Below are positions 9,001-12,000 of a stretch of 14,145 bases of DNA, one piece after another. Position 1 is the first letter of the stretch. Every line of letters begins with the position of its first letter. Position numbers: made by a program. The stretch comes from a virus (Duplodnaviria > Heunggongvirae > Uroviricota > Caudoviricetes): IMG/VR virus record IMGVR_UViG_2740892369_000006, one strand, 5' to 3'.

Positions 9001-12000
9001 CTGATGTCTGATGCCATTCCGAAAGCACACAAGACCGAAGCAATAAATCTCCAGTCCGTTCTGCTTATCTTCGATTCATGACAGCCAATCATCTTTGCCA
9101 GACCGCGCTGGGTAAGCGTTGACAGGTTGATGAGTAAATCTGTTTCTGCGCGATCAATTTCTCGCTGTGTTAGCTTGCTGTAACTTGCTTGTGCCATTTG
9201 TTAATTTTCCTATATTGATATATAGCGGCACACCCAGTGGATTTGCCGCTGATGTTTGCTCACCCGGTTAGAGGTGAAAGGCCAGAACTGTTAAAGAGCA
9301 ATTTACTTATGCCGCTTGGCGGTAAGCACTTTCTTGATACTTCAGGGCGCCAGCTGTAACGATTTCCAATCGATAGGCGTCTTTCTCTGGGATAACTTCT
9401 TTCCACTGAGAGACTGCTGCATCGCTAATGCCTAGTGCTTTAGCAACAGCACGCTGGGTTCCGAAGTGGTCAATAACATCTTTTTTGTACATAGACTCGC
9501 TCCGAAATTAAAGAACACTTAAATTATCCACCAAAGGAATCTTAAGTCAAGTTTATTTAAGATGTCTTAACTATGAATACACAACTGATGGGTGAGCGTA
9601 TTCGCGCTCGCAGAAAAGAACTCAAGATTAGGCAGGCTGCCCTTGGCAAGATGGTTGGCGTGTCTAATGTTGCTATTTCCCAATGGGAGCGATCTGAAAC
9701 TGAGCCCAATGGCGAAAACCTATTGGCCTTAGCCAAGGCTTTGCAGTGCTCCCCTGATTACCTGTTGAAAGGAGAGGATAGTCTTTCAAACATTGCCTAT
9801 CACAGCAGGCATGATCCAAGAGGTTCGTATCCTCTAATTAGTTGGGTAAGCGCAGGATGTTGGATGGAAGCTGTAGAGCCATATCATAGGCGTGCAATAG
9901 ATAACTGGTACGACACAACGGTAGATTGTTCTGAAGACTCTTTTTGGCTCGACGTTAAAGGTGATTCAATGACTGCCCCGGCAGGACTGAGTATTCCTGA
10001 AGGGATGATTATTCTCGTCGACCCAGAAGTCGAACCACGTAATGGAAAGCTGGTAGTCGCCAAACTTGAAGGAGAAAACGAGGCGACATTCAAAAAGTTA
10101 GTTATTGATGCCGGTAGAAAATTCCTGAAACCACTCAATCCACAATACCCAATGATTGAAATCAATGGGAACTGTAAAATCATTGGCGTTGTCGTTGATG
10201 CCAAGCTAGCAAACCTTCCTTAAGGGGCTTTCGCCCCTTTTTTATTTCCCGTTAAAAATCAAAGACAAACTAAATTCGCGCCCATAAAATTAAGTTTTCT
10301 TCAAAAATGCACTTGACCAAAAAATTAAGAGGTCTTAATTTTAAGCCGTCAGCAGGAGGCTGGAAGCCAAACGGAACAGATTGGCAGGCTCTTTAACATC
10401 GACGAACTCTCAACCTAACCGTTGAGACCAGAACTTGAGTGGTTTTGGGGATGGCGCGAATTGCAGCTGCAAGACAGCGATCGAGAAGATAAGCACCTCG
10501 ACGCGTCATGCGCCAAAGCCACTTAAAGGAGACCATCATGGTAACCATTGTCTGGAAAGAATCCAAAGGTACGGCAAAAAGCCGCTACAAAGCTCGCAGA
10601 GCAGAACTTATTGCCGAGCGACGCAGTAATGAAGCACTGGCGCGAAAAATTGCGCTAAAGCTCTCTGGTTGCGTCAGAGCAGACAAAGCAGCATCACTAG
10701 GAAGCCTTTGCTGCAAGAAGAAAGAAGAAGTTGTTCGAAAAAATAGAAGTATTTATTACAAGGATTCAAACCCATTAGGAAACAAAATACATGCAGTCCA
10801 AAAAATAAAATTGTACAGTAAACTACCGTACGGTGCTTATTGAGTATGCTTATGGTGAAAAAGACTATTTATGTTAATCCTGACCGCGGACAAAACAGAA
10901 AAGTATCTGATAGAGGTCTTACATCTCGAGACAGGAGGAGAATAGCGAGATGGGAAAAGAGGATAGCATATGCATTAAAAAACGGTGTAACACCTGGATT
11001 TAATGCTATAGATGACGGTCCTGAATATAAGATTAATGAAGACCCAATGGACAAAGTTGACAAAGCATTAGCAACACCATTTCCTCGCGATGTCGAAAAA
11101 ATTGAAGATGAAAAATATGAGGATGTAATGCACAGAGTTGTTAATCACGCTCACCAACGAAATCCAAATAAAAAATGGTCATAGCCCACTTCGGTGGGTT
11201 TTTTATTGGCTGAACTAACCTAATTTATTACAGCAAGCCACGCAGTGAAATGGGTGTGACTTGTGTTGGTCGCCAGAAAATGAAATTAGGCAGCAAACCA
11301 CTTATTTGAGGTGAGATATGACAAAATCATGGAGCGTACCTTTTCCTGAATCAGAAACTGAACATGATGGAATGCCTGTTTTCTGGAGATTCCAGGCGAC
11401 AGTTGAAGAAGATGGGATAAAAATATTCGCACTTCAATATATAGCTTTTCATCAGACAGAGCATTATGCATGGTTGGTTCCTGCGCATTGGATTGTTAAT
11501 TTTAAACCAGCACCAAATCAGTGGTTACAGGAATGGAAACAAAGGAGAAATAGATATGCAATTAAGAAAGTAGCAAAAAATGCAGAAAGATCTTTTGCAT
11601 TCCCAACGAAGAAACTTGCTATTGAAAGTTTATTGCGCCGGAAGAAATACCATTTAATGAGAATAAAACAAGATTTGGCTGTTGTATCAACTCTTGTTGA
11701 TGGGATGAAAAATATTGATACATCAACACCAGATATTGAATATAACTTTGGACACAACCAAGAAACAGAAAATTGGGTATTTTATTAGTACGAGTAAGCA
11801 CTGTGTATTCATTCCAACGAGTGAATACACGGAGCAATGTCGCTCGTAACTAAACAGGAGCCGACTTGTTCTGATTATTGGAAATCTTCTTTGCCCTCTA
11901 ATGTGAGGGCGATTTTTTTCTGTGAGGATATGAACAGATGTCAAACATCAAAAAATACATCATTGATTACGACTGGAAAACATCAATAGAAATTGAAATC

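Follow-up and report, generated by a model that had tools for sequence, protein, structure and literature searches.

The stretch of DNA considered here, 14,145 nucleotides (nt) long (IMG/VR record IMGVR_UViG_2740892369_000006; called the window below), is the early region of a lambdoid prophage. It is of interest for the gene of the transcription antiterminator N, which ends in a foreign 3′-end and is followed by nun, the transcription-arrest gene known from phage HK022. The window is 100% identical to the prophage that adjoins yfaA and gyrA in Escherichia coli O26:H11 strain 11368, and many further enterohaemorrhagic strains carry a prophage that is likewise 100% identical. The + strand of the window has the direction of the leftward (pL) operon. 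On it follow, in order, the repressor gene, a terminator, pL with its operators, boxA and boxB, N, nun, a second terminator, an orphan copy of an N 3′-end and an open reading frame (ORF) of 156 amino acids (aa), and beyond these ea10-like, cIII, kil, gam, bet and exo (Table 1). The system that sets the specificity of antitermination is of the phage 21 type: the arginine-rich motif of N has its cognate 21-type boxB at both nutL and nutR. The repressor, which resembles C2 of P22, and its operators are of the 21 type as well. The position of nutL corresponds to the boxA-L/nutL features annotated in the phage 21 record OL657228, and the 21-type nutR hairpin lies at ~9262-9283 on the minus strand. 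A search of the window for lambda-type boxB found none, also when two mismatches were tolerated.

Table 1. Features of the N-nun region, numbered from the first nucleotide of the window
Feature	Position	Strand	Remarks
P22-C2/21-type repressor	9573-10223
nutL	10388..10427	+	boxA GCTCTTTAAC and 21-type boxB hairpin TCTCAACCTAACCGTTGAGA (10408-10427); exact match to the phage 21 boxB pattern
Hybrid N antiterminator gene	10538..10843	+	101 aa; 21-type arginine-rich motif and centre, foreign tail (tail_x)
Left crossover zone, 21-type to tail_x-type	10699..10725	+	onset of mismatches to phage 21
tail_x, replacement N C-terminus	10709..10843	+	codons 58-101; 32% GC
Direct repeat ATTTATTACA, copy 1	10751..10760	+	10 nt, exact; I-Y-Y codons of tail_x
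pNun, constitutive nun promoter (by homology)	10791..10819	+	-35 ATGCAG 10791-96; -10 TACAGT 10814-19
nun, HK022-type Nun transcription-arrest/superinfection-exclusion protein	10852..11184	+	110 aa; RefSeq start 10846 (112-aa form)
Intrinsic terminator of the nun cassette (predicted)	11183..11208	+	AGCCCACTTCGGTGGGT followed by a T-run; terminator scan
Short spacer	11209..11216	+	from T-run to orphan; contains in-frame TGA 11211-13
Orphan 21-type N 3′-end, non-coding	11217..11309	+	codons 70-99 and stop; 89/93 nt identical to phage 21 N
Direct repeat ATTTATTACA, copy 2	11223-11232		I-Y-Y codons of the orphan
Next pL-operon gene	11318..11788	+	156 aa, function unknown; PHROG 1636, E=2.7e-112

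A hybrid N gene

The N ORF (ATG at 10538, stop codon at 10841-43) encodes a protein that matches the N-like family PHROG 271 over residues 1-99 (E=4.6e-31). Its beginning is that of phage 21 N. Over residues 8-29 it has the very sequence of the 21 N peptide in PDB 1NYB, and between 10538 and 10698 a single base (10684) departs from phage 21. Mismatches build up from 10699 on (10699, 10709, 10721), and by this alignment the 21-type part of N stops at about codon 54-57. An earlier note on this DNA, made from the sequence alone, had carried the match to about residue 70, which is too far. The note was right that the 3′-end of N has been replaced by A+T rich DNA. The replacement, tail_x, reads CCKKKEEVVRKNRSIYYKDSNPLGNKIHAVQKIKLYSKLPYGAY. 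It is a diverged homolog of the tail of 21 N (20 of 38 residues identical, E=3e-8 by BLASTP), and its G+C content is 31.9% as against 49.1% in the 5′ part of N. From 10726 onwards it is the same DNA as a remnant of N that precedes nun in HK022.

In phage 21 itself, the last 42 residues of N are those that tail_x stands for in the window. The native C-terminal region is not part of the hybrid N; it is found 470 bp downstream as non-coding DNA. The window lacks 21-type codons ~58-69, and so the 3′-end of N has been replaced rather than cleanly interrupted by an insertion. What remains of phage 21 in this region is N residues 1 to ~57, the boxA and boxB of nutL, nutR, and the P22-C2-like repressor with its operators.

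The nun cassette

By homology over its whole length, the ORF between the two N tails is nun of HK022; the earlier note had left this gene unidentified. The product matches PHROG 5632 ('Nun-like transcription termination factor') over residues 1-110 (E=2.2e-69), and is identical in 108 of 109 residues to chain N of PDB 6ALG and in 111 of 112 to the HK022 ORF. Each comparison leaves a single difference: against the HK022 ORF, residue 14 of the 112-aa form is R in place of S, outside the arginine-rich motif, and in the 6ALG alignment residue 11 of the mature protein differs, with the arginine-rich motif unchanged. Residues 20-45 agree with the Nun peptide in the Nun-boxB complex 1HJI_B. The window's protein also shares its C-terminus (...VNHAHQRNPNKKWS) with HK022 Nun without a change, and the stretch ...HAHQRNPNKKWS there holds H98, K106, K107 and W108, the residues that HK022 Nun needs for arrest (PMC5386594, PMC4496710). 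In the RefSeq records of mEp235, mEpX1 and PA28, the same gene is labelled 'Nun-like transcription termination factor'. The ratio of nonsynonymous to synonymous substitution rates (dN/dS) of nun is 0.13-0.20.

The DNA on both sides of the gene is shared with HK022 as well, including 118 bp upstream of nun with the promoter hexamers, and the terminator. The hexamers of pNun are annotated in the record of O276 (HK022 immunity region) and map to the window at 100% identity. They lie within the last codons of N and are kept in all variants of the cassette, the -10 hexamer being TATAGT in CPww7. In a repressed HK022 prophage, nun is reportedly transcribed from constitutive promoters, pNun lying just upstream, and the transcripts are said to end just after the gene. 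The terminator predicted at that place in the window has a 7-bp stem with four G-C pairs and a T-run (RNA fold of -12.3 kcal/mol), and is homologous to the one that follows nun in HK022.

The earlier note had proposed a search for the donor of the A+T rich segment. HK022, O276 (an HK022/lambda hybrid) and HK75 match the window from 10726 to 11201 at 96.6% identity. The match begins ~120 bp upstream of nun, within the N tail, and continues through the terminator. Because it spans the N tail, pNun, nun and the terminator, these four together make the transferable unit. On this alignment, the cassette consists of ~44 codons of an alternative N C-terminus that double as pNun, of nun, and of an intrinsic terminator.

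HK022 itself has no N gene and uses put RNA instead. The DNA that precedes nun in HK022 reads ...EVVRKNRSIYCKDSNPLGNKIHAVQKIKLYSKLPYGAYW and is bounded on the left by put-region DNA. There, the stop codon TGA of N has become TGG, which marks this truncated stretch as a remnant, and from the alignment HK022 carries a dead N tail ahead of nun. In the window, by contrast, an N gene of working length has this DNA as its live 3′-end. HK022 also lacks the 21-type orphan after nun, the place being taken by IS903 or by DNA of the tL2 region. For the HK022 gene with pNun and the terminator, see Oberto et al. (1989) and King, Madsen and Weisberg (2000); 6ALG is the structure of Kang et al. (2017).

The orphan N tail

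The native end of N that tail_x has displaced reads ...IYYSKPRSEMGVTCVGRQKMKLGSKPLI*, in a frame different from that of N. It has no start codon before its IYY. An in-frame TGA (11211-13) stands two codons upstream of 11217 and eight codons upstream of the conserved 22-mer that served as anchor for the scans described below. No longer ORF includes the orphan. The alignment to phage 21 N thus confirms what the earlier note had seen in this segment: a second, better-conserved copy of the 21-type C-terminus, without a start codon and in another frame.

Origin of the join

Our preferred account, which includes the origin and the mode of action set out below and to which we give a probability of roughly 85%, is that the lambdoid prophage of E. 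coli O26:H11 acquired the segment ~10700-11216 as an HK022-type nun cassette, by recombination at the 3′-end of a phage 21-type N. In the course of events that we envisage, one old illegitimate join would have put a nun-bearing left arm beside codon ~70 of a 21-type N. Homologous crossovers would have followed, on the left within the conserved centre of N and on the right within the orphan tail, and would have spread the cassette among phages that differ in N specificity and in downstream genes.

The left boundary differs by lineage. The window, mEp235 and HZ13 have the 21-type motif, and ET450 and CPww7 have another arginine-rich motif (MTVVITYLADDN...RNRRRARRQ) fused to tail_x via the common centre LARKIALKLSGCVRADKAASLGSL. 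In PA28, the switch comes ~25 nt later than in the window, and in ET450, too, it falls at a slightly different point. A boundary that varies in this way fits repeated homologous crossovers within N. The right junction is of one kind: the terminator, a spacer of ~8-20 nt, and the orphan from AACC-N-ATTTAYTAC. As it is common to cassette variants that are only 91-96% identical to each other, the right junction is older than the divergence of the cassettes. The genes that follow the orphan are different in the window, mEp235, CPww7 and Kapi1, and in HZ13 and several IMG/VR contigs the 3′ half of the orphan is swapped for another N-tail allele (...RQKQRGKSIPAYYD). Judged by these alignments, the chimeric orphans and the differing downstream genes show exchange inside the orphan.

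The layout of hybrid N, nun, terminator and orphan is found at 91-99% identity in mEp235, mEpX1, Kapi1, Lambdavirus PDP110P1, PA28 and Stx1a-converting phages. Of these, mEp235 and Kapi1 differ from the window in the downstream genes, and the PA28 type in its later left crossover and in a 1-nt deletion that lengthens N. The orphan is not annotated in the records of any of these phages. The Kapi1 papers do not mention Nun, and the one on the lysogen transcriptome gives no report on the nun homolog, Kapi1_019. The earlier note had called the locus a recombination scar, made by splicing in a foreign N 3′-end together with a downstream gene and a terminator. As a description of the structure this stands. 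As an event private to this prophage it does not, the same right junction being present in mEp235, mEpX1, Kapi1, PA28, the Stx1a phages and 195 of the ~220 complete E. coli genomes that carry nun. Nor was the splice a simple one: about 12 codons of 21-type N are gone, and the same orphan is found after unrelated cargos.

Is the orphan kept for a function?

We infer that the orphan is a non-coding leftover of the join. It might instead be kept for a function, as the ribosome-binding region of the next gene or as a homology 'linker' at the edge of an accessory slot, and there is something to be said for this. The same tail, starting within ~15 nt of one position in N, is found after nun, after an 88-aa C2H2-like ORF, after a 147-aa ORF (in phages without N) and after a module of a P22-type tail and a 148-aa ORF. 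Among the IMG/VR matches listed, orphans make up 31 of the 118 scorable loci with the tail sequence, and intact N genes with unrelated bodies of the 933W type have the same last ~29 codons. In the window, the stop codon of the orphan overlaps GAGGTGA, the Shine-Dalgarno sequence of the gene at 11318-11788, and crossovers within the orphan link nun to differing downstream genes.

Conservation, however, does not single the orphan out: in the PA28 type its identity is 0.94, equal to that of nun. Truncated or chimeric orphans exist (HZ13), nun occurs without any orphan in HK022, HK75 and ET450, and the Shine-Dalgarno sequence needs just the last ~7 nt. Promoter and terminator scans saw neither element within the orphan, and an Rfam scan of 10200-11900 (E<=1) gave a single hit of chance level and no RNA family in orphan or tail. 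As the orphan is not more conserved than its neighbors and nun exists without it, we treat a function of the orphan as a minority explanation, to which we would give perhaps one chance in five.

Does the hybrid N work?

The hybrid N is very probably functional as an antiterminator. The phage isolates mEp235 and mEpX1 have a hybrid N with this foreign tail, and so does Kapi1, which carries the region at 98% identity and is an inducible, plaque-forming phage (PMC8787464). The sole difference between N of mEp235 and N of the window is the last residue, Y to C. The centre of N, tail_x and nun are contiguous, with the N ORF intact, in 218 complete E. coli genomes. In the PA28 type, the 1-nt deletion falls just before the stop codon of N, which becomes 112 aa long and extends into the start of nun. 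From these comparisons, the extreme C-terminus of N tolerates change. The nun frame of the PA28/Stx1a-type cassette (PA28 1689-2334; loci L068 and L083) is fully open despite the overlap with N; the PA28 record has just a 45-aa piece annotated as Nun-like.

A defective hybrid N, within a prophage region that is a decaying and non-functional remnant, is a possibility to be weighed, since the C-terminal third of the protein has been swapped for a sequence only 53% identical and this third is the part that contacts RNA polymerase in lambda N. RefSeq, moreover, calls both N and Nun hypothetical. The dN/dS of tail_x is moderate, 0.4-0.5, a weak estimate from ~44 codons only, and suggests weak purifying selection. 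Against a defect speaks the occurrence of the tail_x hybrid in isolates and in a plaque-forming, inducible phage, with but one residue changed in mEp235. The N ORF has stayed intact throughout the 218 genomes, and the genes around it in the prophage are intact, too: cI, cro, cII, O, P, the nin genes, the Q-like antiterminator gene, exo, bet, gam and int. The PA28 deletion alters the last few residues of N only, and PA28 is a sequenced isolate of an Stx phage. We thus find a defective N improbable, and the question whether the chimeric N works, which the earlier note had left open, is largely answered, on indirect evidence, by Kapi1, mEp235 and mEpX1.

Transposition or duplication in place

An exact 10-nt direct repeat flanks nun, and could be taken for the target-site duplication of a small mobile element that carried nun into N. 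The two copies of ATTTATTACA, however, are the homologous I-Y-Y codons of the two N tails, and because of this position the repeat is one of homology and not a target-site duplication. HK022-type sequence reaches 25-50 nt to the left of the repeat, 12 codons of 21-type N are gone, and many orphans have ATTTACTAC instead, which makes the repeat inexact at those loci. A repeat search of the window gave the 10-nt direct repeat alone, with no terminal or flanking inverted repeats, and no transposase or recombinase ORF was found at the cassette. Transposition of this kind we reject as most improbable.

A duplication of the N 3′-end in place, followed by divergence of one copy and involving no foreign DNA, would account for two homologous tails 470 bp apart, and is rejected just as firmly: it is contradicted by the match of tail_x and nun to HK022 (96.6%), which has no 21-type N, by the inequality of the copies (one 96% identical to phage 21, the other 53% in protein, with G+C contents 17 percentage points apart), and by tail_x never being seen without nun.

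There remain points that weigh against the recombination of an HK022-type cassette into N, or against parts of that account. A generic sigma-70 scan did not call pNun, the -35 hexamer of which is weak. The activity of pNun is put forward by homology to HK022 and with reference to King et al. (2000). The selection on tail_x was estimated from few codons, as noted above. That Nun prefers the nut sites of lambda to those of 21 is taken from the literature and from the lack of a lambda boxB in the window. Both the expression of nun in this prophage and exclusion by it are argued from HK022. Finally, a single origin of the right junction is our inference, and the near-identical junction of three unrelated cargos could mean a preferred site.

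How Nun would act

If HK022 is a guide, nun would be transcribed from pNun in the repressed prophage, and the transcript would end at the terminator of the cassette. Nun is reportedly specific for the nut sites of lambda (Robert et al., 1987). When a phage with such sites superinfects, Nun would bind the lambda-type boxB of its nascent nut RNA and, with the Nus factors, arrest the RNA polymerase of that phage. The resident would escape its own Nun by having 21-type boxB at nutL and nutR and no lambda-type boxB. By analogy with HK022, Nun should exclude lambda-nut phages without harm to its own phage. The mechanism of arrest has been worked out for HK022 Nun (PMC5386594, PMC4496710). After induction, transcripts from pL that have been modified by N at nutL would pass the terminator of the cassette and go on into the genes behind it, much as lambda N allows at tL1.

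Frequency of the arrangement and relatives of Nun

Of 5426 complete E. coli genomes, 219-221 have nun and 220 have tail_x, tail and nun being strictly linked. In 218 of these ~220 genomes nun is fused to the body of N, and in 195 of ~220 the orphan is present as well. It follows that the N-less layout of HK022 is the rare one. When species-representative genomes were scanned, copies of nun that are identical or nearly so turned up in records labelled Shimwellia, an "Oxalobacter" metagenome bin and Escherichia sp.

More distant relatives were also met. A contig of Proteus vulgaris PR00166 (L147, 1155-1830) has a 103-aa Nun-like ORF, 41% identical, directly after an N-like gene with a P22-type tail and before a terminator. 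Its C-terminus is the same (...NRVVNHAHQRNPNKKW) and its N-terminal basic motif is different (KMRRYLARGKLIELKIAEAL), which suggests relatives of Nun that are aimed at other nut types. In phage 434 (OL657226.1, 677-1546), a 289-aa ORF (phrog_12139) directly follows a lambda-type N. The final ~16 residues of this ORF (NPVNHAHQRNPNKKWS), together with the terminator and the DNA that follows, are those of the 3′-end of HK022-type nun. Here a different protein body bears the C-terminal peptide with which Nun contacts polymerase and DNA.

Other cargos behind the same tail

When IMG/VR was scanned with the 22-mer from the orphan, at least 120 loci were found, and were assigned to the intact or the orphan class by the similarity of the upstream 57 nt. 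Among the matches listed, there are at least 87 intact N genes and at least 31 orphans, and two loci are cut by contig ends. The intact genes (at least 87) include 40 in which the body shares 70% identity or more with phage 21 N, three with a 21-like body that has a short insertion, and 44 of the 933W type. The orphans among the matches listed follow nun (15), a P22-type C-terminus and a 148-aa ORF (8), a P22-type N with an 88-aa ORF and a terminator (7), and a 147-aa ORF with a terminator and no N (1). Their start falls within ~15 nt of one position in N across all classes. A second scan, with the junction ACATAAATAACCGTATTTACTAC, gave 16 loci, ten with the 88-aa ORF and six with the 147-aa ORF.

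The 88-aa ORF has a C2H2-like zinc-finger motif (phrog_20899, of unknown function; a weak Pfam match to zf-Di19). It occurs in E. coli EC20 (L012, 1519-1785) and at the IMG/VR loci L040, L041, L055, L061, L062, L075, L134, L136, L139, L140 and L142, where it overlaps the stop codon of a P22-type N and is followed by a terminator and the orphan 21-type tail. EC20 further has a RefSeq feature 'tRNA-OTHER' (L012, 939-1019) between the repressor and the P22-type N, at about the place expected for nutL. In five other loci (L044, L135, L137, L138, L141), there is no N between the repressor and the orphan. The place, between ~470 and 26 nt before the orphan junction, is taken by a 147-aa ORF (MKSATVYTAMRVKQYGG...) with a terminator that closely resembles that of HK022 nun; this could be another N-less early region or another exclusion gene. 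Eight loci have the centre of N joined to a P22-type C-terminus (...CSGSICLPNVAIYAAGYRKSKQLTAR), with the orphan tail after it. Five of them (L019, L069, L082, L085, L089) have an ORF of 143-148 aa (MGQEEKYELKKLI...) after the P22-type tail; the other three (L039, L058, L114) have differing downstream content and no such ORF. Finally, at 44 loci among the matches listed (e.g., L014, L017, L018), N is of the 933W/Stx type, in which an unrelated body (...IERKNQRTWY) has near-identical last ~29 codons. Since a 933W-type N carries the last ~29 codons of the 21 type, the N tail is a mosaic module in intact genes as well.

Each of the four cargos has a terminator of its own and stands between the body of N, or no N at all, and the same orphan, the end of N thus behaving as a common joint on the right of an accessory slot. 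From these arrangements one may suggest, tentatively and with the odds somewhat against it, that the last ~30 codons of 21-type N are a docking segment at the right edge of a slot for accessory genes after N, that the other cargos are candidates for Nun-like factors, and that HK022 is derived from an ancestral N::nun. If this is true, the 'noncoding' DNA before nun in HK022 would be a dead N tail retained for its promoter, and the uncharacterized cargos would be candidate factors directed at the machinery of elongation in rival phages. The shared joint itself may reflect common descent with exchange of cargo, a selected joint, or a preferred break site.

Comparison with other mobile cassettes

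HK022 has already made known the gene, with its promoter, mode of action and structure, and several phage records annotate the adjacency of N and nun. Lambdoid phages are likewise known for cassettes that bring a promoter and a terminator, and for mosaic joints at the ends of genes. In the literature consulted, we found no description of the DNA before nun in HK022 as an N tail, of nun in E. coli as almost always fused to a live N, or of the 21-type orphan as marking the right side; older papers may mention the first of these. Nor did it yield anything relevant on Nun in Stx, mEp or Kapi1 phages.

The nun cassette is akin to the morons of lambdoid phages (Juhala et al., 2000; Hendrix and colleagues), which are single accessory genes with their own promoter and terminator and a lower G+C content, absent from an otherwise collinear phage (here phage 21) and expressed from the prophage. 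It has a promoter (by homology), a terminator and an atypical composition (36.6% G+C vs. 49% in the 5′ part of N), and is absent from phage 21. The difference is that it does not sit in a clean gap between genes: its promoter lies inside the replacement copy of the N 3′-end, so that the C-terminus of N has been rewritten and an orphan left behind. Of the marks of a transposon, it has neither flanking inverted repeats nor a transposase.

Replacement of gene ends is familiar from a different source. Some integrating elements supply a new 3′-end to the gene in which they insert, as do phage 21 or e14 in icd and prophages in tRNA genes. As with these, a substitute 3′-end is supplied here and the displaced original end is found beyond the insert. 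The likeness is one of analogy only: the cassette is 0.5 kb long, has no integrase or att site, and its left junction is variable.

Neighboring genes

The gene that follows the orphan in the window is likewise found directly after the orphan in PA28 and several IMG/VR contigs. No Pfam model matches either its product or Nun. Further away, a 590-aa ORF (3233-5005, + strand), annotated as a hypothetical protein, lies between an HNH endonuclease gene and ninE, on the strand opposite to the neighboring genes of the nin region, and may be another accessory or defence insertion.

Implications

For this prophage, N and Nun can now be named in place of the label 'hypothetical protein' that RefSeq (PGAP) gives to both, here and in the listed genomes that are 100% identical; the same holds for more than 200 other E. 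coli genomes in which they are labelled hypothetical. Nun has been studied as an oddity of the N-less HK022, yet its usual setting in complete E. coli genomes is a phage that depends on an N of another nut specificity. Because pNun sits inside the N coding sequence, acquiring nun necessarily rewrites the C-terminus of an essential protein. The orphan, in turn, illustrates how short, conserved gene ends serve as recombination joints in phage mosaicism. The paradigm is unchanged: this is a well-documented example of a known gene in a known sort of mosaic joint. For the enterohaemorrhagic host, the prediction is that the prophage would protect it against phages with lambda nut sites.

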